DNA of 64,000 nucleotides from contig JAJHSH010000067.1 of the NCBI GenBank assembly GCA_022683945.1, positions 2,085 to 66,084 of the forward strand, given 5' to 3'. Shown in pieces: positions 18,813 through 56,379 of the stretch. Source of the stretch: Candidatus Acetothermia bacterium. Lineage in GTDB: Bacteria; Bipolaricaulota; Bipolaricaulia; RBG-16-55-9; DRXL01. The stretch's first letter is position 1. Each line of letters opens with the position of its first letter. The position numbers were made by a program, and so were the translations under genes. The notes beneath the pieces are model-generated. The model searched no databases and had not been told where the DNA came from. It worked only from the letters and a program-made list of their open reading frames with translations.

Positions 18813-18820
18813 CCCCCTGG

Positions 18821-18869: not shown

Positions 18870-20654
18870 ATGGCAACGGGAAGAATCGTGAAAGTCGCAG
18901 GGCCGCTAGTCGTCGCTGAAGGCTTAGCGGACGCGAAGATGTACGAAGTGGTGCGCGTTGGAAAAGAACGCTTGGTCGGCGAAGTGATCGTGCTCGATGG
19001 CGACTTGGCTTCGATCCAAGTTTATGAAGAGACGGCGGGACTGGGGCCCGGCGATCCCGTAGAGGGGACAGGCGAGCCGCTCTCGGTTGAGCTTGGGCCG
19101 GGGGTTATCAGTTCTATTTACGACGGCATTCAGCGCCCACTCGAAGCTATACAAGCCCGCTGGGGGGCTTATATTCGTCGCGGAGTCGAAGCCGCGGCGC
19201 TCGACCGCACCAAGAGATGGGGATTTACGCCCAAAGTTAAAAAGGGCGAGGCCCTCTCGGCCGGCGATCTTCTGGGCCTTGTGCAAGAGACGACGCTGGT
19301 GGAGCACCGCGTCATGGTGCCGCCCGGTCTGTCTGGCACGATAGAAGAGATTCGCGCCGGAGAGTTCACTGTAGAGCAGACGATTGGGGTGCTCAAGGAC
19401 GCTCAGGGGAAGCGTCACGAACTAAAGATGATGCAGCGCTGGCCGGTGCGTCGAGCCCGGCCCTATACTGAAAAACTGCCCAGCACCGAGCTGTTGACCA
19501 CCGGACAACGCATTGTAGATACACTTTTTTCATTGGCCAAGGGCGGGACGGCCTGTGTGCCGGGGCCGTTTGGCTCAGGGAAGACGGTCATTCAACATCA
19601 GCTCGCTAAATGGGCCGACGCGCAAGTGATTGTCTTTGTGGGTTGCGGCGAGCGCGGCAACGAGATGACCGACGTGCTGATGGAGTTCCCCGAACTCGAA
19701 GACCCGAAAACGGGCGAACCTCTGATGAAGCGCACGGTGCTCATTGCCAATACGTCCAATATGCCCGTCGCCGCGCGCGAGGCTTCTGTCTATACGGGAA
19801 TCACTATCGCCGAGTATTTCAGAGACATGGGCTACAGCGTCGCGCTCATGGCCGATTCGACGTCGCGGTGGGCCGAGGCGATGCGCGAGATCTCTGGGCG
19901 CTTAGAGGAGATGCCCGGCGAGGAGGGCTACCCGGCCTATCTGGGCTCGCGCACGGCAGATTTTTACGCGCGCGCAGGCCGAGTCATCTGTTTGGGCACC
20001 CCTAGGCGCGAAGGCAGCCTCTCGGCCATCGGCGCGGTCTCGCCTCCCGGCGGCGATCTCTCTGAACCCGTCACCCAGAACACCTTGAGATTAGTGAAAG
20101 TCTTCTGGGGGCTCGATGCCAATCTCGCCTATAGACGACACTTCCCGGCGATCAACTGGCTGGCGAGTTACTCGCTCTACAACGACGATCTGATCCCGTA
20201 TTTCGAGAAGCACGTCGGCGCAGAATGGAATCTCCTGCGGGAAGAGTTCATGAAGCTGCTCCAGATCGAAGCCGAGCTCGAAGAGATTGTGAGATTAGTG
20301 GGTGTAGAAGCGCTCTCGCCAGCCGATCGCTTAAAATTGGAAGTGGCTCGCTCGATTCGTGAAGACTTTTTAATGCAAAGCGCTTTCGACGAAGTCGACA
20401 CGTTCTCTTCGCTATCCAAGCAATTGAAGATGATGCAGCTTATCCAGCGCTTCTATGATCTGGGGCAGCGGGCGATTGAGCATGGCGTGGCCATTCAGAA
20501 GATTATAGAGCTGGCGGTGCGCGAGCGCATCGCCAAGGCCAAATTCATCCCGGAGCATCAATTTGAGCAGAGCTTCCCAGAGATAGATCGAGAGATTCAG
20601 CGAGCGTTCGAGAGTTTGCTGGCAGGAGGAGCGCATGCAGCGAGAGTACACTAG
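18870..20654 (+). CDS. atpA: A/V-type ATP synthase catalytic subunit A
   Basis: Start at ATG 18870 (AGGAGG 6 nt upstream). Walker A GPFGSGKT; non-homologous insert region typical of the A subunit; about 594 aa, no intein. Confidence 0.95.
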
Positions 20655-22026
20655 CATTTCGGAGATCTCCGGTCCCATTATGATTGTTGAGGGGGTCGGC
20701 GGGGTCACGTTTGAAGAATTGGTCGAGATCGAACTGGCGGGCGGCGAGATCCGGCGCGGGCGCGTGCTGGAGATCAACAGAGACAAAGCGGTCATCCAGC
20801 TCTTTGAAGCCGCACAGGGCCTGAATCTGCACCAGAGCCGCGTGCGCTTCTTGGGCAAAGTAATGGAGCTGGGCGTCTCTGAAGATATGTTGGGAAGGGT
20901 CTTCGACGGCGCAGGACGGCCCATAGACGGCGGCCCCCAGATCATCCCGGAGAAGAGACTGCCCATCACCGGCGAGCCGCTCAATCCGTACTCGCGGGAC
21001 TACCCAAATGAATTCATCCAGACGGGTATCTCGGTCATTGACGGGCTGAACACATTAGTGCGTGGCCAGAAGCTCCCGATCTTTTCGGGATCGGGGCTGC
21101 CGCATAACAAATTGGCCGCTCAAGTCGCGCGCCAAGCGAAAGTCTTGGGCACGGGCGAAGAGTTTGCCGTTGTCTTCGGCGCTATGGGCATTACGTTCGA
21201 AGAAGCCAATTTCTTTATCACAGATTTGCGTAAGACGGGCGCGCTCGAACGCTCCGTGATGTTTGTCAATCTAGCCGATGACCCGGTGATCGAGCGCATC
21301 ACGACCCCCAGATTGGTACTCACGTGTGCGGAATATCTTGCGTTTGAGCGCGATCTGCACGTCTTGGTCATCTTGACGGATCTGACCAATTACGCCGAGG
21401 CGCTGCGCGAGGTGAGCGCCGCCCGTAAAGAGATCCCCGGACGGCGCGGCTACCCCGGCTATATGTACACCGACTTAAGTACTATTTATGAGCGCGCGGG
21501 ACGAATCAAGGGCAAGAAGGGTTCTATTACTCAGATGCCCATCTTGACGATGCCTCAAGACGACAAGACCCATCCCATCCCTGATCTGACGGGCTATATT
21601 ACCGAAGGTCAGCTCTTTCTCTCTCGAGAGCTGCACCGCAAGGGCATCTATCCCCCGTTTGACGTGCTGCCCTGTCTGTCGCGCTTGAAAGACAAGGGCA
21701 TCGGGAAGGGCAAGACCAGAGAAGACCACGCCGGCGTGCTCAACCAACTCTATGCTGCCTATGCGCGCGGCATAGACGTCCGCGAGATGGCCGCGATCTT
21801 AGGCGAGGCTGCTCTGAGCAAATCCGACAAACTCTACTGGAGATTCTCGGACGAGTTCGAGCGGCGCTTTATTCAGCAAGGCGAATACGAAGACCGGACG
21901 ATTATTCAGACGTTGACGATCGGTTGGGAGCTATTGAGTATGTTGCCGCGCGGCGAGCTCAAGCGTGTGCGGGACGAGTTTATTGAGAAATATCTGCCCA
22001 AGCAAGCCGAGACCGTCGCAGCGTAA
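20635..22026 (+). CDS. atpB: A/V-type ATP synthase subunit B
   Basis: 463 aa, regulatory B-subunit similarity throughout (SGSGLPHN..., [12 protein letters not shown]). Confidence 0.95.
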
Positions 22027-22049
22027 AGCGTAAGAGGAAGTGAGAGACG

Positions 22050-22682
22050 ATGGCCGTCGCTCAACGAGTGAACGCAACCCGGATGGAGTTGCTCAAACAG
22101 AAGAAGCGTTTGGCGATGGCCAAGCGTGGGCATAAACTCTTGAAACAGAAGCGCGACGAGCTGATGCACCGATTCTTGCAGTTGGTCGAAGAGACGCGCG
22201 GCTTGCGCGAGCGCGTTGAAGAAAAGCTAGCCCGTGGGTTTCGCAGCTTCTTGCTCGCTCGCGCGGAGATGTCCAAAGAATTCATGGAAGAAGCTCTGAT
22301 GACGGGCGCGAGCAGCAACGGTGCGCTGCGCTTGCGCACCGAATCGGTGATGAGCGTCTGGGTGCCGCGCTTCGATTATGCTGATCGTCGCGACATCTAT
22401 GCCTACGGGTTTGCGGCTACTTCGGCAGAATTAGATACGGCACTGACGCTCTTTCAAGAAGTGCTGCCGGAGATGATCAAGCTCGCAGAGATCGAGAAGT
22501 CTCTAGAGCTGTTAGCAGAAGAGATCGAGACGACGCGCCGCAGAGTGAACGCGCTGGAGCGCGTGCTGATCCCGCAGATTGATGAGAATATCAAGAGAAT
22601 TTCGATGGCCTTGGACGAGATGGAGCGCAGCAGCCGGGCGTCGCTGATGCGGATTAAAGAGATCATTCGCGGTGAGGCTTAG
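22050..22682 (+). CDS. atpD: A/V-type ATP synthase subunit D
   Basis: 210 aa; MAVAQRVNATRMELLKQKKRLAMAKRGHKLLKQKRDELM is the typical subunit-D N-terminus. Confidence 0.9.
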   Translation: MAVAQRVNATRMELLKQKKRLAMAKRGHKLLKQKRDELMHRFLQLVEETRGLRERVEEKLARGFRSFLLARAEMSKEFMEEALMTGASSNGALRLRTESVMSVWVPRFDYADRRDIYAYGFAATSAELDTALTLFQEVLPEMIKLAEIEKSLELLAEEIETTRRRVNALERVLIPQIDENIKRISMALDEMERSSRASLMRIKEIIRGEA

Positions 22683-32219: not shown

Positions 32220-32892
32220 GAAAATTATTATCGCCAAAGATTTAGTGAAGACCTATGAGAACGGGCGCACGCGCGCGCTCGACGGGGTCAGTCTGGAGAT
32301 CTTTCGCGGAGAAGCCGTAGCGATCTGTGGGCCATCGGGCTCGGGTAAGAGCACTCTTTTGAATCTCATCGGCGCGCTGGATCGTCCAGATTCTGGAGAA
32401 CTCATCGTCGCCGGCGAAAATTTGGTACGTCAGCGGAGCGATCTCGCGGACTTCCGCGCGCGCAAACTGGGCCTGATCTTTCAGTTGCACAATCTCATCC
32501 CCGCGTTGACAGCGCTGGAAAACGTGCTCATCCCAACGTTGGGGATCAACGGAGGAAGACGAGAGATCCAAGCGCAGGCAAAGATGCTCCTAGAGCGGGT
32601 TGGCTTGCACGATAAGACTCATCGTAGGCCGCCGGAACTATCGGGCGGAGAGCGCCAGCGCGTGGCCGTCGCACGCGCGTTGGTCAACAACCCCGAACTC
32701 ATTCTTGCCGACGAGCCCACCGGCAGCTTAGATTCCAAGAGCGAGAAGCAAGTACTCGATCTGCTGAGAGAGCTGCAAACTGAGCGCGGAGTCACTTTGA
32801 TCTTAGTGACGCACGATCCGCGTGTAGCGCAAAGCGCCGACCGCGTCATCGAGCTCTTAGACGGGTGCGTCAGAGCCCCAGTTGCCGCTTGA
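32212..32892 (+). CDS. ABC transporter ATP-binding protein (LolD/MacB-type)
   Basis: Walker A GPSGSGKST, signature LSGGERQRVAVARAL, Walker B ILADEPTGSLD. Confidence 0.9.
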   Translation: MSEKIIIAKDLVKTYENGRTRALDGVSLEIFRGEAVAICGPSGSGKSTLLNLIGALDRPDSGELIVAGENLVRQRSDLADFRARKLGLIFQLHNLIPALTALENVLIPTLGINGGRREIQAQAKMLLERVGLHDKTHRRPPELSGGERQRVAVARALVNNPELILADEPTGSLDSKSEKQVLDLLRELQTERGVTLILVTHDPRVAQSADRVIELLDGCVRAPVAA

Positions 32893-33709
32893 GCAGATAT
32901 TCGAAGACCCTGCTGGGGAGAAAGCGTCGCAGGGGGATGAAAGATCTTGCATCGCGCCCCACGGGGTAGCGCAGCTTCGGATGAGGGTGCGCGAGCGCGC
33001 GATAGATCGTCTCTGCGACTCTCTCAGGAGGGGCAGCGCGATAGATATTTCTCTGAATGCGGCGACTGCTGACCTGCTTGAAGGGAGTATAAGGGGAGTC
33101 GTCGCTCTGCGCGTCTTGGGCCAATTGCACATTCTCTTGAAACTTGGTGGCGATGAAACCCGGCTCGATAAGAATAGCTTTGATGTTCCACGGGGCCAGT
33201 TCGTAGCGCAGGGTCTCCGTCAGCCCTTCCAGAGCGAATTTGCTCGCCGTGTACGGCCCGGAGAACGGAATGGCCATGCGCCCCAAAACCGAGCTGATAT
33301 TGACAATCACACCCGATCTTTGCTGGCGCATCTGGGGGAGGACGGCTTGGGTGACACGAATCGCACCGAAGAAGTTCGTCTCAAACTGTTTCTGCCACTC
33401 ATCAAGCGAGACTTCTTCTATAGCGCCGCGCAGCCCGTAGCCGGCGTTGTTCACTAAGACGTCGATGCGTCCGCTCTTTTGTAAGATTTGTGTTACGGCG
33501 TTCTTCACAGAACTGTTGTCGCAGACGTCGAGCTGAGCGATCTCAATAGACAGCTTCTCAGACTCGATGGCCTTGTGCAGTTCGCTTGTTTTTTCTAGGT
33601 TGCGCACGGTGGCCCAGACGGTGTAGCCGCGCCGCGCGAGATAGCTAGAAGTTTCTAAGCCGATGCCGCTGCTGCTGCCAGTGATGAGCGCGATTCTCTC
33701 GTTATTCAA
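32870..33709 (-). CDS. SDR-family oxidoreductase
   Basis: TGSSSGIG Rossmann motif, NNAG, Y..K. Proposed TTG start at 33709 with AAGGAG 7 nt upstream; the longer ORF-track N-terminus lacks an RBS and SDR homology. Confidence 0.8.
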   Translation of the reverse strand: MNNERIALITGSSSGIGLETSSYLARRGYTVWATVRNLEKTSELHKAIESEKLSIEIAQLDVCDNSSVKNAVTQILQKSGRIDVLVNNAGYGLRGAIEEVSLDEWQKQFETNFFGAIRVTQAVLPQMRQQRSGVIVNISSVLGRMAIPFSGPYTASKFALEGLTETLRYELAPWNIKAILIEPGFIATKFQENVQLAQDAQSDDSPYTPFKQVSSRRIQRNIYRAAPPERVAETIYRALAHPHPKLRYPVGRDARSFIPLRRFLPSRVFEYLLKRQLGL

Positions 33710-34022
33710 GAGCGAACTCCTTATACTCTCCAGTTTGCATAGTTTCGACTGCCTGACGAATCCCCTGAGCGTGCCTTTGTAAGCGTGGCCATGACGTGGA
33801 CAGCAAGACAAGTATAGCTAGCTTTCGCCCGCGCAAGTCTTGCTGATATTGGAGGTTCTGATCTGTAGTTATCAAGAGGTCGTATCCCTCCTCTTCAGCA
33901 ACTTGGAGCAGCTGATTATTTTCAAGATTAGCCCATCCCTGTTCATATACCGTGTTAACGCTATGTCCTTCAAGATAGTCACGCAAGGGAACTGGAGTGC
34001 CCTGATCGAAGAGTATCTTCAT
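33702..34022 (-). CDS. DUF5615-family PIN-like protein (putative toxin)
   Basis: 106 aa (MKILFDQGTP..., DQNL) resembling the DUF5615 family commonly paired with DUF433. Confidence 0.55.
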   Translation of the reverse strand: MKILFDQGTPVPLRDYLEGHSVNTVYEQGWANLENNQLLQVAEEEGYDLLITTDQNLQYQQDLRGRKLAILVLLSTSWPRLQRHAQGIRQAVETMQTGEYKEFALE

Positions 34023-34026
34023 GGAG

Positions 34027-34260
34027 TCATGAGACGCTTAAAGATTCAAGCTCATGATCAAGCACTGCTTCAACTTGCTCGCGTTGCACACCGGGAAACC
34101 ACTTCAAAAAATCTTCAATGGAAGCACCATCTCGAAGATTCTCAAAGAGCGCCCTGACAGGCACCCGCGTGCCACGGAAGACCCAGGCCCCACTCACCTT
34201 GCCTGACGTTTGTTCAACAACCCAACAGCTGCTCCAATCGTGCGCTGGTTGCTCATTCAT
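34027..34260 (-). CDS. DUF433-family protein (putative antitoxin)
   Basis: 77 aa; GTRVPVRALFENLRDGASIEDFLKWFPGVQREQVEAVLDH is characteristic of DUF433. 4-nt gap to the downstream DUF5615 gene. Confidence 0.6.
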   Translation of the reverse strand: MNEQPAHDWSSCWVVEQTSGKVSGAWVFRGTRVPVRALFENLRDGASIEDFLKWFPGVQREQVEAVLDHELESLSVS

Positions 34261-34276: not shown

Positions 34277-35311
34277 TTAATTATACTGCACCGAATCCGT
34301 CACAGCATACTGCTGCTTTACTCCCGGCACAAGATACTCTTCAAAGGCGCGCTTGAAATCATACGCAGGCTTCCAGTCCCAGTCCGCTCGCGCGGCGCTG
34401 TCATCAATATCCGTTGGCCAACTATCTACAATCTTCTGGCGCTTCAGATCGGGCACGAACGTCACTTGCGCCTTGGGGAAAGCGCGGCGCACCAGCTCGT
34501 AGATCTCTCCTGCCGAGGGGTTGAACGCCGTGGCGTTGTAGACCAAGCGCGTGAGGCGCTCCCGCGGCGCGGCTTCTAGTCCTAAGAGCGCTTCTATAGC
34601 ATCAGGCATAACCATAAACGAGATGCGCGTATCTTCACGAACAAAGCACGGATAGGGTTTCGCCTGCGCAGCGGCATGGAGCATCTCCGGGGCGTAGTCG
34701 CTCGTGCCCCCCGTCGGGACGGTCACGGCGCTGATCAGACCGGGGAAGCGCAGGGCGCGAAAGTCAATATGCCCACGAACAGCTTCAGCATCGAGCTGGC
34801 GATAGTGCTGCGCATAGTAGATTCCCAACTGCTCGCAGTAGAGTTTATTGATGCCGTACATCGTTCGGGGAGTAAGCCATTCGTGCTCTTTGACTTTGCC
34901 GGCGCGCTCTTTTTTCTGTAAGTCGGGCAACCCGTAGACGGCAATCGAACTGGGGTAGAGAAATTTGATCTCGCGCCCCTGCACACGCGATTGCCCTACG
35001 GCCATCTCCAAAAGATTCAGAGTGCCGTCAACGTTGACTTTATGGGCTAAGACGGGCTGGCGCTCGGCCTTGGTCGAGAGCAGCGCGGCCAAGTGATAGA
35101 TGGTGTCAAAATTATAAGTTGCTGAAACGCTCTCTAGAAGAGCAGTGTCTAATATGTCGCCGGTGACCACGCGATAGCACTTGGCCTTGATATTCTCTTC
35201 CAATTCGTGAAGGTCAAGCGCGATGATGCGCAGATTAGGTTGTTCTGCCAATCGCGAGATCAGTCCGTGACCGATCTCGCCGTTGGCTCCCGTCACTAAG
35301 ATCGTTTTCAT
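34277..35311 (-). CDS. NAD-dependent epimerase/dehydratase (extended SDR; threonine-3-dehydrogenase/UDP-sugar epimerase-like)
   Basis: MKTILVTGANGEIG Rossmann start (Met 17 of the ORF-track call; AGGAGG upstream), Y..K catalytic pair. Confidence 0.8.
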   Translation of the reverse strand: MKTILVTGANGEIGHGLISRLAEQPNLRIIALDLHELEENIKAKCYRVVTGDILDTALLESVSATYNFDTIYHLAALLSTKAERQPVLAHKVNVDGTLNLLEMAVGQSRVQGREIKFLYPSSIAVYGLPDLQKKERAGKVKEHEWLTPRTMYGINKLYCEQLGIYYAQHYRQLDAEAVRGHIDFRALRFPGLISAVTVPTGGTSDYAPEMLHAAAQAKPYPCFVREDTRISFMVMPDAIEALLGLEAAPRERLTRLVYNATAFNPSAGEIYELVRRAFPKAQVTFVPDLKRQKIVDSWPTDIDDSAARADWDWKPAYDFKRAFEEYLVPGVKQQYAVTDSVQYN

Positions 35312-35361
35312 AATCCTCCTTTGCAGATATTGTAACGAGAAGACGGGAGGGTGAGGCAACT

Positions 35362-36288
35362 CTAGAAGATCTTGCGGCCCAACGCGGAGGCAATCAGCTC
35401 GACGGCGAGCCGTGCCGTGCGATTGTGCTCATCTAAGATGGGATTGACTTCGACCACTTCCAGCGAGCGCAGCAGCTTCGACTCCGCTACGGTCTCCATC
35501 ACGAGATGCGCCTCGCGGTAGCTCAGCCCACCACTGACCGGGGTACCCACTCCCGGAGCGACGTCGGGATCTATAGAATCCATGTCGAAGCTGATGTGCA
35601 GCGCGTCTGATTCCGTTAAGACTCTGCCCAGCGCTTCGTCCAAAATTTTCTGAAGCCCGCGACGGTCAATATCGGCCATCGTGAAGACGTTGACCCCGGA
35701 CTCTTTGAGAAGCATTCGCTCTCCTGGATCGAGCGAGCGCACGCCGATCAAGGCGACTCTAGCCGGGTCAATGAATTTTTCAGAACGAAAGATCTCCAGT
35801 AACTGAGGAGCGCCGCGCCCGGTGCCCACGGCCAGCGCCATGCCGTGAATATTTCCCGACGGCGTCGTCTGCGGCGTGTTGAAATCCCCGTGCGCATCTA
35901 TCCAAATAACGCCGGGGGTCTTCCAGACTTGCGCCAGTGCCGCCAACGTTCCGATAGAGAGACTGTGATCGCCGCCCAAGATCAACGGCGTCTGTTCGTC
36001 GGAGAAGACGGAGATGACGGCATTGCGGATGCGCTCGGCTGCTTCTATCACAAAGGGCAGATAGCGCAATTGGGGATCGGCCCGCGTTGGGGACTGTTCA
36101 GCGATGGGGACGCTGATGTTCCCCAAGTCTTCGCAGTGCAGTCCCAAGGCGCGAATCTCTTCAGCGAGCTGAGCGTAACGAATGGCGCTGGGGCCCATAT
36201 CCACGCCGCGCCGCCCAGCTCCTAAATCTATGGGCACACCGAGAACTTGAATGGTTCGCATCTTGCTAGAAGTTCCATCCTCTGTCAA
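35362..36288 (-). CDS. rocF: Arginase (ureohydrolase family)
   Basis: Mn-binding motifs GGDHSLS, DAHGD, SFDMDSIDP; GLSYRE. Confidence 0.85.
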   Translation of the reverse strand: MTEDGTSSKMRTIQVLGVPIDLGAGRRGVDMGPSAIRYAQLAEEIRALGLHCEDLGNISVPIAEQSPTRADPQLRYLPFVIEAAERIRNAVISVFSDEQTPLILGGDHSLSIGTLAALAQVWKTPGVIWIDAHGDFNTPQTTPSGNIHGMALAVGTGRGAPQLLEIFRSEKFIDPARVALIGVRSLDPGERMLLKESGVNVFTMADIDRRGLQKILDEALGRVLTESDALHISFDMDSIDPDVAPGVGTPVSGGLSYREAHLVMETVAESKLLRSLEVVEVNPILDEHNRTARLAVELIASALGRKIF

Positions 36289-36291: not shown

Positions 36292-36765
36292 TCAAAAGTG
36301 ATCTTGCGTATCGCCCAGCAATCTCTGAATATACGCGATCTGGCCACTGTGATAGGCCGTATGCTCCCCAAATCCTCTGAACAAGACCTTTTGAGCCGTC
36401 CAGGTCTCTCCCCAAGCCATCGAGCACGGTTGCTCAAAGCTCTGCAGACGGTCAATAGCCTCCTGTGTCTCTCTGAGAGTTTTGTGAATAAGTTCTTGGA
36501 CAGCTTGAGCCGTTGCGTATCTCTCTTTGAACTGCTGGGTTGCACGTTTATCCATCGCTGGAGTCTTTTCGCCGCGCAAGAGCGGAGTCATAGAATAGAA
36601 CGCCAGTGCGACGTGCCAAGCGATCTCTTGAGCAGAGCTGGCCGTCGGCTCCGGCTTCCACGTCCACTTATCTGCCGGCACGGTCATCACGAGCTTGATA
36701 AACTCGTCAGCTACGTCATTAATAAACGACTTGGCGAGCGCTTTAAGTTCCTTACTCATAGGCAT
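36292..36765 (-). CDS. DinB-family protein (paralog 1)
   Basis: 157 aa, four-helix-bundle DinB/YfiT-like with C-terminal HTAYHSGQIAYIQRLLG. Confidence 0.65.
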   Translation of the reverse strand: MPMSKELKALAKSFINDVADEFIKLVMTVPADKWTWKPEPTASSAQEIAWHVALAFYSMTPLLRGEKTPAMDKRATQQFKERYATAQAVQELIHKTLRETQEAIDRLQSFEQPCSMAWGETWTAQKVLFRGFGEHTAYHSGQIAYIQRLLGDTQDHF

Positions 36766-36777
36766 CAGCTCCTTTAG

Positions 36778-37350
36778 CTACTCAATTCCTCCGTGCTTAC
36801 GGATCAACTCGGCTATTTCGTTATGACCCTTCTCGATTGCCACGCGCAGCGGCCTCTTGCCTTCAAAATCTTGTACATGGACGTCGGCGCCGCGAGACAG
36901 CAGCCACTGCACCATATCTTTATGCCCGAACCGCACAGCACCTTGAAGCGCTGAAGTGAAGCCTTCAGTAGCTTCGTGCGCAACCAAGAGTTCCGCGATC
37001 TTCGTCTGCCCGCTGAGCGCCGCGAAGAACATCACCGGGATACCATGAGCGCCCTTCGACTTAGCCAAGCTAGGATCAGTCTGCAAGAATGCCTTCACAC
37101 GATCAGCCATGCCGAGCATCGCCGCTGTGCAGATATCAAGTGGCACTCCCTTCGACAAAAGATACTTCGCAATCTCCGAGCTGCCTACGTGCGCCGCGGC
37201 TTCCAGAGCCGTCTCGTTGGTTTTGGGCCAGCGGACGTTGAGTAGCGCGGGGTTGGCCTCCAGCATCTCTTTCGCTTTGGCGAAATTGCCGTGAGCCGCA
37301 ATCACGAATTGCTCGACTTCTTCGTGCGTGGGTTCTGCCTTCTCAACCAT
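36778..37350 (-). CDS. Ankyrin-repeat protein
   Basis: Start at Met 121 of the ORF-track call (purine-rich RBS). 3-4 ANK repeats (ALEAAAHVGSSEIAKYLLSKGVPLD...). The upstream 120 codons are low-complexity and probably non-coding. Confidence 0.7.
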   Translation of the reverse strand: MVEKAEPTHEEVEQFVIAAHGNFAKAKEMLEANPALLNVRWPKTNETALEAAAHVGSSEIAKYLLSKGVPLDICTAAMLGMADRVKAFLQTDPSLAKSKGAHGIPVMFFAALSGQTKIAELLVAHEATEGFTSALQGAVRFGHKDMVQWLLSRGADVHVQDFEGKRPLRVAIEKGHNEIAELIRKHGGIE

Positions 37351-37369
37351 GATCGTTCTTCCTTCTTCC

Positions 37370-37903
37370 TTAACAGATATGCTTGCGACGCGCATACTGC
37401 AATGCCAAAAGCACTGCCTGCCCGCCATGATAGGCCTCGTGCGTGATGACGTGGTGTAGCAGCCAGCGTAGAGTGTACGAGCGCTCACCGCGTCGTCCGA
37501 GGTGCTCTGGATCGGCCAACCTTTGAATCGTGCGATGGGTCTCCTTGCGGATGCGGTCGTGCTGCTCATAGAACCAGGCCAGGGGATGCCTCGGTGGCGT
37601 GGGCCAGCGAATCGCATACTGGTCTGTCTCATCGTCAAGAAGGATCTTCCGTTCTTCTGGTGAGAGGGGGCGGCCATCAGCAACCCCTTGGAGCCAGAAG
37701 GCCTCCACACTCGCGATATGCAAGATCACCGCACCGATGCTATGGCCTTGAGGGAAAGGCTGCCAGATGACGGCCTCATCGGGAACTTCTATCTCTCCCA
37801 GTTCTTCTCGCCACTCCTTCGTGCCATCATCAAGCATGGTCAACAACAGACCGACTTGCGGATCCAAACCGGCGACAGGCTTTACATCAAGTGTTATGCT
37901 CAT
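37370..37903 (-). CDS. DinB_2/DUF664-like protein (paralog 2)
   Basis: 177 aa; HHVITHEAYHGGQAVLL (H...H.GQ) motif. Confidence 0.65.
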   Translation of the reverse strand: MSITLDVKPVAGLDPQVGLLLTMLDDGTKEWREELGEIEVPDEAVIWQPFPQGHSIGAVILHIASVEAFWLQGVADGRPLSPEERKILLDDETDQYAIRWPTPPRHPLAWFYEQHDRIRKETHRTIQRLADPEHLGRRGERSYTLRWLLHHVITHEAYHGGQAVLLALQYARRKHIC

Positions 37904-38010
37904 CGTTTCACCCCCTTCAGATTAGGCCCATAGAGTTCGAGAAGATTGCCCCCCGAAGTTTCAGTTTCCCTGACCTCAACATTGCTATGCCTCACCCCTT
38001 TTACAGTTAG

Positions 38011-38592
38011 TCATTCGTATTTATATGCCGGCTCCCAGCCGTTAGCACCGTCTTTCAGCAGATCGAACAGGTGCCAAACGCTGCAATAAGGATCGCCTGG
38101 TCCCAAGGAATCTTTCCCAATGCGCACGATCTTACCGTCAGGAGTTCTCCGAAATGTGGAAACTCCGGGCATCCAAGAGCTTCTGCCACCGTCTACATGC
38201 TTAAACCCCATGTCTTCAATGAACGTAGATCCTTCGCCGGAGCACATCTTAAACTTCCAGGCCCGCTGCTGAGCGAACGCTCGTTGTGTTGCTGGCGCGT
38301 CCGGCGAGACGACTGCGAATGCCGCACGGTCCTCCAAATGGTGTACGACGCCGTTAAACCCGTCGGCCCACATCGTGCAATACACGCAACTCACGCCCAT
38401 ATTGTGAATGACGATGAGATCGTCGTGCTTGCCAAACAGCTCGCTCAGTCGGACGCTCTTCCCATCCTGGGATTTCAGTGTGTAGTCACGGACCGGTTCT
38501 CCGGCCAGTTGCTTCTTGAGCGCGATCAGGCGCTCGCGTTTTTCTCTGAGCTCTTGCTCCAGACGAGCGATTTCCTCTGCTTCTGACATCAT
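38011..38592 (-). CDS. DUF899 thioredoxin-like protein
   Basis: 193 aa, N-terminal coiled coil; SCVYC and the central pattern typical of DUF899. Confidence 0.6.
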   Translation of the reverse strand: MMSEAEEIARLEQELREKRERLIALKKQLAGEPVRDYTLKSQDGKSVRLSELFGKHDDLIVIHNMGVSCVYCTMWADGFNGVVHHLEDRAAFAVVSPDAPATQRAFAQQRAWKFKMCSGEGSTFIEDMGFKHVDGGRSSWMPGVSTFRRTPDGKIVRIGKDSLGPGDPYCSVWHLFDLLKDGANGWEPAYKYE

Positions 38593-38660
38593 GCGCTCCT
38601 TTCATCTATGGAGGCGTTTGGGGAGGGCGCAAGCCCTCCCCTTCGCCTCTACTTCATTGC

Positions 38661-39149
38661 TTACTGGGTTGTGCCCTCCTTGTAGGGGTTATAGCCCAGC
38701 AACCAGCGATACGTGATCAGTTGCCCCAAGTGGTAGTATTCGTGGCGTGCCACCCAACGGACGAGCTCTTCTGGCTCGACCGTCGGTTCTTTGAAGTACT
38801 GACGCCAGCTCTCCGGCACTGGAATAGGTCTTACCAGTTGTTCATCCGTGGCCGACTTTAGAAAGCTGACGGTCTCCGCGCGAATCTTTTCAAGCTCCTT
38901 CAAGGTTGCGCCAGCGTCGTTGCCACTCCAAGTAACCGCCTTCTCCCAGTCAGGTTTGGGATGACCGGCAGCCACTGTCATGCAGACCCTCTCCATAGTC
39001 CCAATCTCTTGGAGCAGATCCTTGGGTGATTTCATGTCTGGACGTGGATGCCAATCGAACTCCTCGGGCTTGAGCTTGCGCACTATATCGACCAGCTCTT
39101 GCCTAATATCTTCCAGCTCCCAAAGCAGCCTTTGGGACAGCTTTGCCAT
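38661..39149 (-). CDS. DinB-family protein (paralog 3)
   Basis: 162 aa; VARHEYYHLGQLITYRWLLGYNPY. Confidence 0.65.
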   Translation of the reverse strand: MAKLSQRLLWELEDIRQELVDIVRKLKPEEFDWHPRPDMKSPKDLLQEIGTMERVCMTVAAGHPKPDWEKAVTWSGNDAGATLKELEKIRAETVSFLKSATDEQLVRPIPVPESWRQYFKEPTVEPEELVRWVARHEYYHLGQLITYRWLLGYNPYKEGTTQ

Positions 39150-39179
39150 GATGAACGCCTCCTTTCTAATGATTCGCCC

Positions 39180-39548
39180 CTACTTACGTGCGCTCTGGAA
39201 GAGCCCAACGATATTGCCGTCCGGGTCCGTGAGATGGGCGTACCAACCCACGCTAGGGTCGATCTGCGTCTTTGGGTCAGCGACCCCGCCTCCCAACTCC
39301 TTGGCCTTCTTCAGATAAGGCTCGATCTCGTCAACTTGAACGTACACCAGCGGCGACCGGCCTGCACGTACTTCTTTCTGCTTCGCGAAGCCGCCGCCGA
39401 AGCCATCGGGACACTTAAAGAGTACGTAACTGTCTCCCCATGCTTCAAACGTCCACCCGAAGAGGCCACCATAAAAAGCTTGTGTCCGCTTGAGGTCCGT
39501 CGAGGCCCATTCGATGTGACAGATTCCGTGCTTTGCCATATATCTCAC
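39180..39548 (-). CDS. VOC-family (glyoxalase/bleomycin-resistance fold) protein
   Basis: 122 aa; HIEWASTDLKRTQAFYGGLFGW...HLTDPDGNIVGL. Confidence 0.8.
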   Translation of the reverse strand: MRYMAKHGICHIEWASTDLKRTQAFYGGLFGWTFEAWGDSYVLFKCPDGFGGGFAKQKEVRAGRSPLVYVQVDEIEPYLKKAKELGGGVADPKTQIDPSVGWYAHLTDPDGNIVGLFQSARK

Positions 39549-39567
39549 CCTCTTTTTATAAATTGCG

Positions 39568-40050
39568 TCACGACTGCTTGTATGGGTTATATCCCAGCAG
39601 CCAACGGTTATAGATCAACTGCCCCAAGTGATAATACTCGTGTCGGGCAACCCAACGTATCATCTCTTCGGGCTCCCGGCGCGGTCCTGTGTAGCGGTGC
39701 CAGCTCTCCGGCATCTCCACCGGCTTGTGCAGATCGTCATGTGAAAGCGAGTCAAGATAGCGAAGCGTCTCTTTTCGAATGCTTGCTAAATCTTTCAAGA
39801 TTGATTTGAGATTATCACCGCTCCACTTCACGGCCGTCTCCCATTTGAGTGGCGGTCCCCCAGCAATCACGTTGATACATACCTTCTCCGTTGCGCCGAT
39901 CTCCTGCAACAGCGCCTTGGCCGACCTCATCCCCGGTCTTGGTGGCCAGTCGAACTCCTCCGGCTTCATAGAACGAGATGTCTTTAGCAACTCTTCGCGA
40001 ATCTCTTTCAGCTCTTTGAGCAAGCGCGCCTTATGGGTATCTTTCATCAC
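39568..40050 (-). CDS. DinB-family protein (paralog 4; close tandem paralog of 38661-39149)
   Basis: 160 aa; colinear with paralog 3 (EEFDW.PRP.M.S.K.LLQEIG..E.VC..V.AG.P...WE.AV.WSG......LK.L..IR.ET...L.S.....L..P...PESW..Y..P..EPEE..RWVARHEYYHLGQLI..RWLLGYNPYK). Confidence 0.65.
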   Translation of the reverse strand: MMKDTHKARLLKELKEIREELLKTSRSMKPEEFDWPPRPGMRSAKALLQEIGATEKVCINVIAGGPPLKWETAVKWSGDNLKSILKDLASIRKETLRYLDSLSHDDLHKPVEMPESWHRYTGPRREPEEMIRWVARHEYYHLGQLIYNRWLLGYNPYKQS

Positions 40051-40192
40051 GAGATCTCCTTGCTATAATCAAACAATAAAAATATATTGGGAATGGGGGG
40101 AGGGCATCGGCGATTGAGAAGAAGCGGCTTACTCCCTCCTTTCGACAGACGATGCCCTCTCCCTTCTCTTACTTTTGTAAGGGCACGGTATA

Positions 40193-41329
40193 CTACGCAC
40201 CGTTCGACGACTCCGGCGCCGCTGCCAGCAGCGTAGCCGCAGACTTGCGCGTCCCGCGTCGCGCGGGTCTTTCTGGTTCGGTCGAAAGACTGCTCTCTTC
40301 TTCTGCAGAAGCAGCTTGCTCTGGCTGTCCATTGGTGGACGGGAGAGCCAGACCGGCCTTCTCGCGAATCGCGCGCTCCAACTGCTGGGCCACTTCTTTG
40401 TTCGCCTCCAAGAACGCAGCAGCATTCGCGATCCCTTGGCCCAAGCGCGTCTCACCCAAATTGAACCACGAGCCGCTCTTCTTCACCAAGCCCAACTGCT
40501 CCCCGGTCTTGATGAGTTCGCGCTCGTAAACGATGCCCTTGCCGTAGATAATATCGAACTTCGCTTCTTTAAACGGTGGCGCGAGCTTGTTCTTGACAAC
40601 TTTTACAACCGTCTCGCTGCCCACGCGGTTGTCGCCCTCTTCGATGCTCCCCAAGCGCTTGATCTCCATGCGCACGGACGAGTAGAACTTCAGCGCCAAG
40701 CCCCCCGTCGTCGTCGTCGTCGGCCCCCAACCCGTCCCGGAGATCGTCTGGCGAATCTGATTGATAAAGACGACCGTTGTTTTAGATTGTGAGATCGCCG
40801 CGGCCAGCTTGCGCATCGCTTGGCTCATTAAGCGGGCTTGCAGCCCCACTTGGGCATCGCCCATCGCCCCGGCAATTTCAGCTTCGGGGACGAGCGCCGC
40901 GACCGAATCTACGACGATAATATCTACAGCCCCGCTGCGCACGAGCGTCTCCATGATCTCCAGCGCTTGCTCTCCAGAATTGGGCTGCGAGAGCAAGATC
41001 TTATCGAGATCTACGCCGATGACACGGGCATAGCTGGGATCGAGCGCGTGTTCAGCATCAATGAAAGAAACGACGCCGCCGCGCTTCTGCGCTTGCGCCA
41101 ATATATGAAGCGCCAAGGTCGTCTTGCCCGAAGACTCCGGCCCGAAGATTTCGACAATCCTGCCGCGCGGCACGCCCCCAATTCCTAACGCCACATCGAG
41201 CGCCAGCGAGCCTGTAGGAATCGTCTCCACCGGGAGCTTGCTCTGCTCCCCCAGCCACATAATCGCGCCCTCGCCGTACTTGCGGCGCAGCCCGTCCAAT
41301 ACACTATTGAGCACTTCTTGCTTGCCCAT
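40193..41329 (-). CDS. recA: Recombinase RecA
   Basis: Start at Met 42 of the ORF-track call ([36 protein letters not shown]). Walker [10 protein letters not shown] and full-length RecA similarity; long acidic/Ser-rich C-terminal tail. Confidence 0.95.
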
Positions 41330-41975
41330 CGGTCTCCCTCCTATGGAGAATCTCTTGTAGATTATGTAACGAGTGTTTGACTCGTCGCACGACGCCGACC
41401 ACCCGACCGACGATCTGGCCCTCGCCCAGCGGCATAGACCTGTAGCGCGCATTCGCCGGGACGAGCCAAGGCTGGTTCTCTTTCATCATAAAGAACTTCA
41501 CCGTCGCTTCGTTCTCTTTAATCGCGACGACGATCTCGCCCGGCTGCACCATAGATTGTGGCTGTACGATCACCAGATCACCGTTGAGAATGCCAGCTTC
41601 GATCATGCTATCGCCCTGAACTCGCAGAGCAAAAGGACGTTCATCCCGCCCAAACCAGACATCCAAGTTAAGCACCTCTTGGACGTCTTCTACCGCGGGG
41701 ATCGGACGCCCCGCGGCGATCTGCCCGACGACGGGAATCCCGCGCTCACGCCGACGAGCTTGCCCAATCACTTCGATCCCGCGCGATTTTCCTATCAAGC
41801 GCCGGATAGCCCCCTTGCGCTCTAGCGCTTCCAGATGCGTCTGGACGCTCCGCACCGAGCGCATCCCAAAATGCTGGGCGATCTCCCTCAATGTGGGCGG
41901 CATCCCCTGATCCGAGATGCACTCAACGATAAAATCCAGAATCCGTCTCTGCTTCTCCGTCAATTCGCTCCTCAT
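41304..41975 (-). CDS. lexA: LexA repressor
   Basis: N-terminal wHTH ([53 protein letters not shown]) and S24 peptidase domain with GDSM. 3' end overlaps the recA start by 26 nt. ATG at 41975 (alternative 41984). Confidence 0.9.
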
Positions 41976-41985: not shown

Positions 41986-42014
41986 AGTATAGCATACAAA
42001 TATACGGTTGTCAA
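41986..42014 (-). promoter_or_regulatory. lexA promoter TTGACA-N17-TATACT (minus strand) with overlapping imperfect palindrome GTATATTTGTATGCTATAC
   Basis: -35 TTGACA = reverse complement of 42009-42014; -10 TATACT = reverse complement of 41986-41991. The ATG at 41975 lies about 3-4 nt after the predicted TSS (near-leaderless). Confidence 0.45.
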
Positions 42015-42054
42015 GAGGGGGGTACGCGCCAGCTTGAATCTCAGGCGCTCTTCC

Positions 42055-42180
42055 CCAAAAACCGCGCGATCTGTCTGTCAGGGAGACGCTCGCCTATCAC
42101 TTCAAGCGTGTCGAGCACCCGATGGGGTGACTCATAGAACACAACGGTACAAGACTCTCTAGCTATCTGTTGAAAGAACT
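42055..42180 (-). pseudogene. rsmI internal fragment (diverged duplicate of 43376-43500)
   Basis: About 85 nt nearly identical to the intact rsmI (GCGCGATCTGTCTGTCAGGGAGACGCTCGC[C/T]TATCACTTCAAGCGTGTCGAGCACCCGATGGGG...), with weaker similarity continuing for about 60 nt. Confidence 0.55.
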
Positions 42181-42185
42181 CGCGC

Positions 42186-42413
42186 TTGGCTTTGGGCTGC
42201 ATTCAGCGTTTAGTCCAAGACTTAAACTTTCCCGTCAAAATTATCGCCGCACCGACGGTGCGCGATCCCGACGGCTTAGCTATGAGCAGCCGCAATGTTT
42301 ATCTAACCCCAGAACACGGTACTCTATCGGTCTTTGCAGGGTGTAAAAGCTTTGATAGGATTGGGCAGATACTGAGAACCGAGTACAGGAGATTCCAGCG
42401 ATTGATTGAGTGA
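42186..42413 (+). pseudogene. panC 3' fragment (pantoate--beta-alanine ligase C-terminal region)
   Basis: Translation ...[29 protein letters not shown]... matches the PanC C-terminal motif (VREADGLALSSRNVYL). Only 75 codons, no N-terminal domain. Confidence 0.55.
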
Positions 42414-42430
42414 ATTCTTGCTGCGGCGGT

Positions 42431-42688
42431 TCAGTAAGCCTTGGAACGAGGCTTGATCCGGTAGACTCGCACTTCATGCGCTTGGTCATTCACAGCATAC
42501 AGAATCCGCCAACCGCCTACTCGCAAGCGATACCTGGGTGGGTGGATGTCTCGCAGCTTGCGTACCCCAGGTGGGCGAGGATTTTGCTCTAAACTCAACA
42601 AGCGTTCCTGCATCCGCTGTGCCACCGTTGGATCGAGTCTGCGGAAGTCCTTCTGGGCAGATATTTCTAAGAGAACGCGATAGCTCAT
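42431..42688 (-). CDS. RelE/ParE-family toxin
   Basis: 85 aa; ...RKLRDIHPPRYRLRVGGWRILYAVNDQAHEVRVYRIKPR typical RelE/ParE C-terminus. Confidence 0.75.
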   Translation of the reverse strand: MSYRVLLEISAQKDFRRLDPTVAQRMQERLLSLEQNPRPPGVRKLRDIHPPRYRLRVGGWRILYAVNDQAHEVRVYRIKPRSKAY

Positions 42689-42879
42689 TCTGTTGTCGAA
42701 GGGCTCCTGTCTTTCAACCGACGCAGGAACTCGCGCAGCTCAATAGCTTGTTTCGGATCGGATTCTGCGATGGCCTCTTCCAGATCCAGCGCATCTTCGA
42801 GGTCTTCGAGCAGCGTGCGTACCGCATCTTCCGGCAGCTGATCAATGAGGTGCTTGGCTTCTTCTTTGAGGGCACTCAT
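42685..42879 (-). CDS. Putative antitoxin / addiction-module component
   Basis: 64 aa acidic helical protein immediately upstream of, and overlapping, the RelE/ParE gene (4-nt overlap). Confidence 0.5.
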   Translation of the reverse strand: MSALKEEAKHLIDQLPEDAVRTLLEDLEDALDLEEAIAESDPKQAIELREFLRRLKDRSPSTTE

Positions 42880-43062
42880 GGGTCAACTCCTTTCCGTTGA
42901 AGAAGCTTAACGAATGAAGGAAGTGATGTCAAAGTGCGCCGCGCAAGGGCTGATCGTGCTGGTGGTCTGCTCGCATTACACAATTAACCCCGGCTAGAAG
43001 CACCTCTCGGCGATAGGAGCTTTGAAACGCAAAAAACGCAGCCAGATTTCGTGGCCCAGTAA

Positions 43063-43962
43063 TTATTGCAGAAATCTTACGCGCGCGTTCTTTCCAACAA
43101 CTTTCTCATAGACTTCCCGCTTAGGAACCCTTCTCAGTTGGGCGACCCGCTTGATCGCTTCTTTCTTCTCTAGTCCTCCAGCGACGAGCTTCTGCACATG
43201 CTCCACAACTGAAAGCTCTAAGTCTTTGCTGGCTTCTTCACTCTCTTCTTGAACTGACGCGCTGGAGAGCACCAAGGTGATCTCCCCTTTGATCGCCGGG
43301 CGCGATTTCAGCTGCTCCAAAATCTCGCTGGGCTTGCCCCGCAGAATCTCCTCGTGCATCTTCGTCAATTCGCGACAGAGCGCGATCTGTCTGTCAGGGA
43401 GACGCTCGCTTATCACTTCAAGCGTGTCGAGCACCCGATGGGGCGACTCATACAGAACGATAGTGCGTCTCTCGTTTTGCAATCGCTCGAAGAGTGCACG
43501 CTTGGCTTTGAGTTTCTTCGGTGGGACACCCTCGAAGAGAAAGCTGTCGGTGGAGAACCCCGATGCGACCAATGCTGTGATGAGGGCCGTCGGCCCCGGA
43601 ATGGGAACAACCGAGATATTTTCAGCGATTGCTCGTCGAACTAACTCGTACCCTGGATCGGAGATGAGCGGCGTCCCTGCGTCGGAGATGAGCGCGATCT
43701 TCGCCCCGGATTTGAGCTTCTGCACAAAATACTCGACGCGCTCGCGCTCCACCCCGCGATACAAGCTACGCTCGAAGGACTTCTCGATTCCGTAGTGCTG
43801 CAAGAGCTTCCGTGAATGTCGGGTGTCTTCAGCGATGATCAGATCGCACTCTTTGAGAACTCGCAGCGCCCGCAGCGTGATGTCTTCTAAGTTCCCGATG
43901 GGCGTGGCGACGATGAATAATGCGCCGGAAGACCTCTCTCCCAGCCCCTCCCCAACCCTCAC
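43063..43962 (-). CDS. rsmI: 16S rRNA (cytidine1402-2'-O)-methyltransferase RsmI
   Basis: GALFIVATPIGNLEDITLRALRVLKECDLIIAEDTRHSRKLL and the rest of the tetrapyrrole-methylase fold. Proposed GTG start at 43962 (codon 77 of the ORF-track call; GGGAGAGGG upstream); the longer call runs through GC-rich hairpin repeats and overlaps prfB. Confidence 0.7.
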   Translation of the reverse strand: MRVGEGLGERSSGALFIVATPIGNLEDITLRALRVLKECDLIIAEDTRHSRKLLQHYGIEKSFERSLYRGVERERVEYFVQKLKSGAKIALISDAGTPLISDPGYELVRRAIAENISVVPIPGPTALITALVASGFSTDSFLFEGVPPKKLKAKRALFERLQNERRTIVLYESPHRVLDTLEVISERLPDRQIALCRELTKMHEEILRGKPSEILEQLKSRPAIKGEITLVLSSASVQEESEEASKDLELSVVEHVQKLVAGGLEKKEAIKRVAQLRRVPKREVYEKVVGKNARVRFLQ

Positions 43963-55697: not shown

Positions 55698-56264
55698 TTA
55701 GCTCCTGACCAGTGCTTGGCGCAGCTGTTGGATGAACTTGGGATCGCCGACGGAGCGAACCCCGCGAAAGAGGATCTCTCCCTGAGGGCTTAAGAGCAGT
55801 ATCATGCCGCGCTCTCGCACCCGATAACGATGGGCCACGGGATTCATTCGCGAGTCAAGAACATAGCGAAAGTCGGGGTGGCCGTAGAGACGACGGTGCT
55901 CTCTTAAGTCTTCTACAGAATCATTGAATGGATCGAAGCTGATCCAGATGATCTGTAATTGGTCGCGGTATTTCTCGTAGAATTGTGCTAGGCTCCGAGT
56001 CTCAGGGCGACAGGTGATGCACCATGCAGCGGAGAAGTAGAGCAAGACGGGTTTGCCGCGTAGCGCACTCAGCTTTAACGTGCGACCTTCGGCATCGTTG
56101 AGCGAAAAATCCGGCGCGCTCTGGCCTATGGCCTCGGAAGACTCAGAAGACGAGAACGGGTTCCAAAGCAGCAGCAGCAGGGCGCCGCCCAGCGCCAGCG
56201 CAACGATGCCGGCGACCAGCAGCCCTTTGGAAGGCTTTGCTTGCGGTGGCTTGGCTTTGTTCAT
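55698..56264 (-). CDS. Thiol-disulfide oxidoreductase (TlpA/ResA-like thioredoxin)
   Basis: Start at Met 25 of the ORF-track call (MNKAKPP...TM anchor); WCITC active site. Confidence 0.8.
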   Translation of the reverse strand: MNKAKPPQAKPSKGLLVAGIVALALGGALLLLLWNPFSSSESSEAIGQSAPDFSLNDAEGRTLKLSALRGKPVLLYFSAAWCITCRPETRSLAQFYEKYRDQLQIIWISFDPFNDSVEDLREHRRLYGHPDFRYVLDSRMNPVAHRYRVRERGMILLLSPQGEILFRGVRSVGDPKFIQQLRQALVRS

Positions 56265-56379
56265 AGTTGGATGATTATAATAGACTCCTTGAGAGAGGAC
56301 AACTGCACAGCGCTCCGGCGGGTGACGGCTGAGCACCCGTTACCAAAGCCGGCGGGTTTACCGACTGTGCTACGCTGGA

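Follow-up and report, generated by a model that had tools for sequence, protein, structure and literature searches.

The window analysed here is a stretch of 64,000 nucleotides (nt) from a Candidatus Acetothermia (Bipolaricaulota) genome. Its gene set was compiled from the listing of open reading frames (ORFs), the sequence itself and the gene calls on identical public contigs. Within the window, the interval 36292-40050 holds an islet of seven small minus-strand genes next to the SOS genes lexA and recA. Four of them encode proteins of the DinB superfamily (DinB_A to DinB_D) and the other three a DUF899 protein, a VOC protein and an ankyrin-repeat protein; an arginase gene after DinB_A brings the number of co-inserted genes to eight (Table 1). 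An earlier, sequence-only reading of the same DNA had described eight consecutive minus-strand genes in this interval, separated by 10-70 nt and situated upstream of recA-lexA. Their shared orientation and close packing are as described, but the interval itself contains seven genes, the eighth being the arginase gene beyond it. The spacers measure 28, 30, 68, 107, 19, 18 and 30 nt in transcription order from DinB_D, so that one of them exceeds the range given, and the cluster comes after recA-lexA, not before, when read in the direction of transcription. A Shine-Dalgarno sequence is present ahead of every islet gene. No exact match was found for DinB_D read from a GTG start; the called gene begins at the next ATG.

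The assignments proposed from the sequence (four DinB-family proteins, a thioredoxin-like DUF899 protein, a VOC protein and an ankyrin protein) were all confirmed by Pfam, and all four DinB paralogues belong to the DinB superfamily. Four members of this superfamily among seven genes would be far above chance, since an expectation of ~3e-4 such windows follows from some 15 paralogues in some 1900 genes. Six assemblies made from separate samples carry the islet DNA at 100% identity, namely one Joint Genome Institute (JGI) metagenome, two NCBI Candidatus Acetothermia (Bipolaricaulota) metagenome-assembled genomes (MAGs) and three Sequence Read Archive (SRA) runs; therefore the gene arrangement is real and not an assembly chimera. 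Overall, this is a real, non-random, lineage-specific accessory islet and otherwise a fairly ordinary one.

Table 1. Features of the lexA-recA locus. Positions are those of the window unless another locus is named; aa, amino acids.
Feature	Position	Strand	Description
lexA promoter TTGACA-17-TATACT	41986..42014	-	11/12 promoter-scan matches
Candidate LexA operator CCGTATATTTGTATGC	41993-42008		inside lexA promoter; left half-site degenerate (CCGTAT)
lexA	41304-41975	-	223 aa; Pfam LexA_DNA_bind + Peptidase_S24
recA	40193-41329	-	378 aa; Pfam RecA_N + RecA_C; 26-nt overlap with lexA stop
Perfect palindrome CTTAC-AAAA-GTAAG	40168..40181		between recA stop and hairpin; window only
Post-recA hairpin	40096..40163	-	upstream slot edge; also in clade I loci L007-L009, L180
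DinB_D	39568-40047	-	DinB_2 59.6 bits; Glu-His-His variant
VOC	39180-39539	-	119 aa, single-domain; Pfam Glyoxalase 26.3 bits (cut-off 20.6)
DinB_C	38661-39149	-	DinB_2 59.6 bits; Glu-His-His variant (E48, H136, H140)
GC-rich hairpin GGGGAGGGC-uugc-GCCCUCCCC	38611..38649	-	between DinB_C and DUF899
DUF899	38011-38592	-	193 aa; 65.6 bits (cut-off 27); also AhpC-TSA; motif VSCVYC
DinB_B	37370-37903	-	MST/DUF664 55.6 bits (cut-off 27), DinB_2 52.1 bits; His triad intact
Ankyrin-repeat protein	36778-37350	-	190 aa; Pfam Ank_2 86.3 bits
DinB_A	36292-36759	-	DinB_2 44.1 bits; His triad intact; core DinB gene
Arginase (RocF type)	35362-36261	-	TIGR01229 rocF equivalog 312.7 bits (cut-off 227.6); last gene of inserted block
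Epimerase promoter-like element TTGC...TACAAT	35329..35359	-	downstream slot edge
SDR-type epimerase	34277-35311	-	gene table
DUF433/DUF5615 pair	33702-34260	-	toxin-antitoxin-like
SDR	32870-33709	-	gene table
GCATAC-N4-GTATGC sites in relatives	L007 396-411; L008 4986-5001; L009 9969-9984; L091 37-52; L182 5499-5514		

The slot after recA in relatives, and homologues elsewhere

The analysis covered 182 loci in all, and the proteins of the window were mapped onto the loci returned by a genome scan anchored on LexA. Six related lexA-recA loci (L007, L008, L009, L180, L182 and L091) were compared with the window. The window and three related Bipolaricaulota MAGs (L007-L009) have the backbone lexA-recA-epimerase-SDR in common, with identities of 67-69% for LexA, 81-85% for RecA and ~85% for the epimerase; the recA of the window is 72-86% identical to that of the relatives. 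Different genes occupy the slot after recA. No gene stands between recA and the epimerase gene in L008 and L009, and in L007 the slot holds a DinB_A homologue alone (61%). The order is lexA-recA-VOC-DinB_A-epimerase in L180 and lexA-recA-VOC-DinB_A-DUF433-DUF5615, followed by a further DinB_2 gene, in L182; L091 is without the epimerase backbone and has an alpha/beta-hydrolase gene after recA. The eight-gene content is found in the window's lineage only, and arginase is not at the corresponding position in L007-L009 and L180. Slot boundaries, family memberships and the presence or absence of genes in the relatives are direct observations.

All four DinB_A contexts that could be retrieved (window, L007, L180 and L182) follow lexA-recA on the same strand, and three of the four include VOC, whose orthologues stand directly after recA in L180 (~65%) and L182 (86%). 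The tie to the SOS genes recA-lexA, whose adjacency the sequence-only reading had noted, is the most conserved aspect of the islet, with lexA-recA upstream of DinB_A every time. The DinB_A subfamily itself comprises 10 proteins in a database of 5.8 billion proteins. Conservation of the cluster as a whole does not extend to the relatives, where it is absent or down to 0-2 genes; what recurs is the VOC-DinB_A core. A LexA-anchored scan of metagenomes returned no relative closer than 53% and added only L091, with nothing on the islet. Among ~160 LexA-anchored loci of other phyla no DinB ORF was detected with home-made profiles of the families found here, which have limited sensitivity.

Comparison of identities between lineages revealed discordance within the slot. 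LexA is only 53% identical between the window and L182, yet their VOC proteins share 86%; with L180, a nearer relative, the VOC protein of the window shares only ~65%. For DinB_A the identity is 82% between the window and L180 and falls to 61% between L180 and L007, a pair with 92% identical LexA. Slot content varies even between lineages with 90-92% identical LexA. Since the VOC and DinB_A trees clash with those of LexA and RecA and the slot contents vary, genes appear to have been gained, lost and exchanged repeatedly at the slot, and these sequence comparisons suggest that VOC and DinB_A were exchanged between lineages at the same slot.

Outside lexA-recA, homologues of DinB_C and DinB_D were found in five other lineages as lone genes in four different contexts: beside a folC-like ligase (three), before paaABCD (one) and after aldehyde dehydrogenase and enoyl-CoA hydratase genes (one). 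Homologues of the short DUF899 protein are likewise lone genes in the contexts of three other genomes. No other islet family stands beside the DinB_C/D or DUF899 homologues in the contexts examined. Because these homologues are lone genes in unrelated contexts, the islet does not represent a conserved multi-gene pathway.

A fifth DinB-like gene had been reported at 11514-11984. Its product, DinB_E, is kin to DinB_A by BLASTP (E 2.8e-8), but its score of 21.7 bits lies under the Pfam DinB_2 (PF12867) cut-off of 24.8 bits, and its metal site is degenerate (E-N-H). DinB_E follows aldehyde dehydrogenase and enoyl-CoA hydratase genes (8784-11984), and the same three-gene order occurs in the Acetothermia MAG L173 (3697-6465). 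Orthology between DinB_E and the L173 DinB protein was considered and rejected, as the two occupy the same position but share 18% identity.

Protein families, metal ligands and predicted folds

The DinB paralogues of the islet were assigned to the DinB superfamily (Pfam DinB_2, PF12867, and DinB, PF05163) by DinB_2 scores above the cut-off of 24.8 bits. DinB_C and DinB_D, with 58% identity, are the sole close pair of paralogues; the remaining DinB pairs share 20-28% (BLASTP). Three histidines are present in DinB_A (H47, H133 and H137) and in DinB_B (H62, H155 and H159) where HMMER aligns the conserved histidines of the solved DinB proteins 3dka, 3gor and 2ou6. DinB_C and DinB_D have glutamic acid instead of the first histidine ligand; in 53 sequences of their subfamily E48 is invariant and H136 and H140 are retained. 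The nearest solved sequence to DinB_B is DR_1065 (2ou6), a weak match (E 0.027). The AlphaFold model of DinB_C, with a predicted local distance difference test (pLDDT) value of 95.8, shows the four-helix bundle of the DinB fold. Foldseek matched this model with probability 1.00 and template modelling (TM) scores of 0.7-0.8 to 3gor, 8f5v, 3dka, 6iz2 and 1rxq; the closest folds are those of Geobacillus DinB, the Mycobacterium tuberculosis mycothiol S-transferase (MST), YjoA, DR0053 and YfiT, and the colibactin-resistance hydrolase ClbS is a more distant match.

The fold is that of MST (8F5V), Bacillus subtilis YfiT/BstA (1RXQ) and Staphylococcus aureus BstA (5WK0); DinB_A and DinB_B have the three aligned histidines named above, a putative metal-binding triad, and DinB_B passes the Pfam MST threshold. 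Unlike in these enzymes, the ligand set of DinB_C and DinB_D is Glu-His-His, mycothiol is an unlikely cofactor outside Actinobacteria, and the activity of the islet proteins is putative.

In the DUF899 protein (PF05988), both cysteines of the motif C69-x-x-C72 are invariant in 46 sequences. Its model (pLDDT 91.6) adopts a peroxiredoxin/thioredoxin fold, to which a helix of 26 residues is added at the N-terminus; BCP and AhpE are the nearest folds (TM ~0.55-0.7 to 2a4v, 5epf and AhpE), and the redox-active cysteines are predicted to sit at the N-terminus of helix 1. In this fold and in the position of its cysteines the protein resembles BCP/PrxQ; its own family, DUF899/COG4312, is annotated as 'predicted dithiol-disulfide oxidoreductase'. 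It differs from BCP/PrxQ by its extra helix and by a CxxC motif as in thioredoxin or ResA. The peroxiredoxin motif PxxxT/SxxC is absent, as the protein reads IHNMGVSCVYCT there with no proline at the required position, and the two residues ahead of C69 vary in the DUF899 family consensus. With the NCBIfam PrxQ model the protein scores 21.8 bits, short of the cut-off of 260. The fold search against solved structures gave no match labelled as DUF899, and literature searches retrieved three papers that name DUF899 and no functional study of it. A dithiol-disulfide oxidoreductase is a sensible guess from the model. The variant of ~190 aa is unusually conserved, with 55-72% identity in more than 2000 matches across distant phyla, among them Poribacteria, Zixibacteria, Armatimonadetes, Chloroflexi, Eisenbacteria and Verrucomicrobia. 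Its invariant residues are H63, C69, C72, T73, W75, D77, H85 and R89.

The nearest solved relatives of the VOC protein (PF00903) are Rv0577 and 2R6U, an uncharacterised Rhodococcus protein (E ~2e-10). Inspected by eye, the C-terminal position reads ...GLFQ in place of the usual glutamic acid of the H/E/H/E metal-ligand set. The N-terminus of the ankyrin protein is hydrophilic by inspection, with no obvious signal peptide.

Promoters, candidate operators and hairpins

The lexA promoter is the sole strong sigma-70-type promoter upstream of the islet on its strand, and the promoter scan found none in the intergenic spacers of the islet. In the relatives a perfect palindrome, GCATAC-N4-GTATGC, is found at the same position between the -35 and -10 elements of lexA. 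This 16-mer occurs in five of the 182 loci and in lexA promoters only (Table 1); the L180 copy is degenerate (GCAGTC...). The recognition helix of the window's LexA is identical to that of clade I (L007-L009, L180) despite the degenerate operator copy, and alignment shows conservation of the Ala-Gly cleavage site and of the catalytic serine and lysine. The architecture xxAC-N4-GTxx is that of Gram-positive and cyanobacterial LexA boxes. Judged from sequence, GCATAC-N4-GTATGC is the obvious candidate for the LexA operator of the clade. Literature searches found no paper joining Bipolaricaulota with LexA or DinB, and the palindrome would be the first candidate LexA operator for Bipolaricaulota.

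A second LexA box was sought in the window and rejected: CATAC-N4-GTATG with up to two mismatches gave 10 matches against 10.4 expected, and the two one-mismatch matches, one upstream of an ATP-binding cassette (ABC) transporter ATPase gene and the other inside an ORF, are uninformative. No second operator was found ahead of VOC or DinB_A in L007, L180 and L182. The palindrome CTTAC-AAAA-GTAAG after recA is absent from the aligned relatives and is a weak candidate for an operator or a small hairpin.

The hairpin behind recA marks the upstream edge of the slot. The window and L007-L009 yield a consensus fold with compensatory changes, and no U-tract follows directly; for the 145-nt spacer around it the folding energy is -46.3 kcal/mol (z -3.35). 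Terminator, attenuator and RNA stabiliser are candidate roles. The loop carries a conserved GA-rich, Shine-Dalgarno-like sequence, GAAAGGAGGGGGAGC. A small ORF at this loop was rejected, as by inspection the peptides after it differ between lineages. The hairpin between DinB_C and DUF899 folds at -32.2 kcal/mol (z -4.13), and 0 of 200 shuffles fold as well. At the downstream edge of the slot, the TTGC and TACAAT of the epimerase promoter-like element are invariant in a four-sequence alignment of the window and L007-L009.

VOC in L182 starts ~24 nt past the recA stop with no hairpin between, and the distance from the hairpin to the next start is ~40 nt in L007 (DinB_A) and ~48 nt in the window (DinB_D). 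As these spacers leave no room for a separate promoter, co-transcription with recA, through which any LexA control of the islet would have to act, may be argued.

Explanations of the locus and its surroundings

The explanation that we prefer, with a probability of about 0.55, is that the islet is an expanded, Bipolaricaulota-specific appendage of the SOS operon, formed by accretion around a VOC-DinB_A core and encoding independent enzymes linked to DNA damage. The shared backbone consists of the lexA promoter, lexA, recA, the conserved hairpin, the variable slot and an epimerase gene with its own promoter. The small VOC protein and the narrow DinB_A subfamily are the recurrent occupants of the slot, and six more genes would have accreted in the window's lineage: those for the two Glu-His-His DinB paralogues, the CxxC DUF899 protein, the MST-like DinB protein, the ankyrin protein and arginase. 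Most transcription of the islet would start at the lexA promoter, under LexA control, and read on past the recA hairpin, and the products would rise with DNA damage. They would act as independent cytoplasmic metal-dependent or redox enzymes against genotoxic electrophiles or oxidants and not as steps of a single pathway, the probable chemistries being thiol transfer or hydrolysis on the DinB fold, binding or isomerisation by VOC and disulfide exchange at the CxxC of DUF899. The SOS link, though inferred, is the strongest signal of the locus; SOS-coupled read-through into the islet itself stands at roughly even odds on the sequence features described.

Several points weigh against this explanation. 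Three of the seven lexA-recA loci are without the VOC-DinB_A core, which is therefore dispensable. In the window itself the left half-site of the candidate lexA operator is degenerate, and CTTAC-AAAA-GTAAG, the sole operator-like site before the islet, is weak and statistically non-significant. The stable hairpins after recA and DinB_C could be terminators, which would imply separate promoters; the promoter scan covered the sigma-70-type consensus only. SOS-coupled expression is a prediction from DNA sequence, the islet families have only putative substrates here, and arginase and the ankyrin protein fit no obvious theme of genotoxin detoxification.

The sequence-only reading had favoured a cluster for low-molecular-weight-thiol-dependent detoxification of electrophiles or antibiotics. 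Taken as a single operon for one coherent pathway, it would have DinB proteins as thiol S-transferases, DUF899 as the recycler of thiol or disulfide and VOC as a glyoxalase-like or FosB-like enzyme. The score of DinB_B above the threshold of Pfam MST (PF04978, formerly DUF664), the resemblance of the DinB_C model to the mycothiol/bacillithiol transferases 8f5v, 1rxq and 5wk0, the invariant CxxC of DUF899 on a thioredoxin-like fold and the tight spacing with a Shine-Dalgarno sequence for each gene are consistent with this chemistry, which is plausible for the individual proteins; nothing supports one joint pathway. No partnership recurs, as the DinB_C/D and DUF899 homologues stand alone elsewhere and relatives keep at most VOC and DinB_A. 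DinB_C and DinB_D are without the first histidine ligand, and the hairpins together with the 107-nt gap divide the cluster into sub-units. Thiol-biosynthesis genes, which the pathway would call for, were not found either: no msh, bsh, gsh or egt Pfam family is present among the ~50 genes scanned of the 64-kb window, which is weak evidence as the rest of the genome lies outside the scan. To our knowledge mycothiol is known only from Actinobacteria. A joint pathway is accordingly improbable. Neutral accumulation, with the post-recA spacer as a permissive landing site and no functional or regulatory meaning in clustering or position, deserves more weight and is still rather unlikely. It would account for slot contents that differ even where LexA is 90-92% identical, for VOC and DinB_A trees incongruent with LexA and RecA, for the rearrangement debris also seen upstream of lexA and for the arginase and ankyrin genes mixed in. 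Set against it, the occupants are non-random (DinB_A in four of four contexts, VOC in three, extra DinB paralogues in the window and L182), all are co-oriented with recA, several lineages leave no room for a promoter, and GC content at third codon positions (GC3) is like that of the surrounding genes.

That a mobile element, integron-like cassette array or anti-phage defence island was inserted beside recA is hardly credible. The flanking toxin-antitoxin pairs (ParE-type at 42431-42879 and DUF433/DUF5615 at 33702-34260), the hairpins after some genes and the incongruent gene trees, which suggest exchange between lineages, would fit such an origin. Against it, the 10 kb to each side of the islet contain no recombinase, its edges are free of integrase, transposase and tRNA genes, direct repeats do not flank it, and the islet hairpins form no dispersed repeated sequence family. 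PADLOC left seven of the eight islet proteins without a match and linked the ankyrin protein to the candidate system PDC-M72A through generic repeats only. Both GC and GC3 match those of the neighbouring genes, and since GC3 matches its surroundings the islet genes appear to be long-resident and not recent arrivals. Given this native composition, the lack of repeats, recombinases, tRNAs and a hairpin family, and no defence system, a recent mobile-element insertion is unlikely. An integron or mobile cassette array was specifically rejected in the absence of a recombinase, flanking repeats or repeated attC-like sites, and a defence island because PADLOC was negative. A further idea is that the post-recA spacer of Bipolaricaulota is a dedicated exchange site, an SOS-driven cassette array expressed from the LexA-controlled lexA-recA promoter and working without an integrase. 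Its cargo would be genotoxin-resistance genes for VOC proteins, DinB paralogues and redox proteins, swapped between lineages, perhaps through RecA-mediated recombination between the conserved recA/hairpin and epimerase-promoter flanks. This idea keeps a small probability because the VOC and DinB_A trees are incongruent and slot contents differ at 90-92% LexA identity; we consider it very unlikely.

Returning to the proposed SOS appendage, its closest analogue is the SiwR-controlled operon of mycobacteria. In Mycobacterium smegmatis, SiwR senses single-stranded DNA and induces the adjacent DinB_2+DUF664 operon (msmeg_1357-1356) under genotoxic stress, and the place of DUF664 is taken in some Actinobacteria by a glyoxalase-like PF18029 gene (PMC10693628). 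Both systems place distant DinB paralogues (DinB_2 and DUF664/MST), in some genomes with a glyoxalase-like VOC protein, beside a DNA-damage regulator, and both encode small cytoplasmic putative metalloenzymes. They differ in the regulator, which here is LexA with RecA and there a WYL activator sensing single-stranded DNA, and in arrangement, since the islet is appended to and co-oriented with the regulator operon whereas the mycobacterial operon is transcribed divergently. The islet is also larger, as DUF899, ankyrin and arginase genes accompany its four DinB genes, and its induction by damage is only presumed. The parallel with SiwR indicates a recurrent link of the DinB and VOC folds to genotoxic stress. 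As most DinB/YfiT, DUF899 and small VOC proteins still await a biochemical role, the coupling of DinB_A and VOC to lexA-recA offers a testable lead.

DinB proteins are also associated with DNA damage in other bacteria. Bacillus subtilis dinB, a member of the SOS regulon, is the founding DNA-damage-inducible gene that gave the family its name. The islet proteins would share with it and with DR0053 the DinB/YfiT four-helix bundle (6iz2, 3dka, 1rxq), the association with DNA damage and the occurrence of multiple paralogues per genome. They differ by identities of only 14-21% and by the Glu for the first His in DinB_C and DinB_D, and the genes of B. subtilis and Deinococcus radiodurans are driven by damage-responsive promoters of their own and stand apart from any lexA-recA operon. 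One paper reports the DR0053 transcript as highly induced in D. radiodurans (PMC4338110), and a title cited in another calls DR0053 highly radiation-inducible (PMC10693628).

Upstream of lexA, 42015-43060 is a mosaic of gene debris, and relatives carry different genes there. A 73-nt segment (42064-42136) is 97% identical to 43380-43452 inside an rsmI-like gene and extends as a translated fragment of the rsmI C-terminus. It is accompanied by a PanC-like fragment on the plus strand (42186-42413) and by a ParE/RelE-type toxin gene (42431-42688) with a small antitoxin gene (42685-42879). On the other side of the islet, the DUF433/DUF5615 pair has a GC3 of 0.47-0.49 against ~0.65 for its neighbours. 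L007 and L182 retain the pair, after the epimerase gene or DinB_A, and L008 and L009 lack it.

Elsewhere in the window, 26343-27587 matches Pus10, with its C-terminal domain and an archaeal-type THUMP domain; this tRNA pseudouridine synthase, otherwise typical of archaea and eukaryotes, occurs here in a bacterial MAG. A V/A-type ATPase operon (14172-22682) lies near this ORF. Further stress and toxin-antitoxin genes among 55698-56336, 56611-57030, 61762-62142 and 7388-8605 comprise a second thioredoxin-like protein of AhpC-TSA/Thioredoxin_8/SCO1 type, a PIN-domain toxin and a TumE toxin. The same group of genes includes a MutY-type glycosylase (HhH-GPD + NUDIX_4), whose gene is divergent from the aldehyde dehydrogenase gene.

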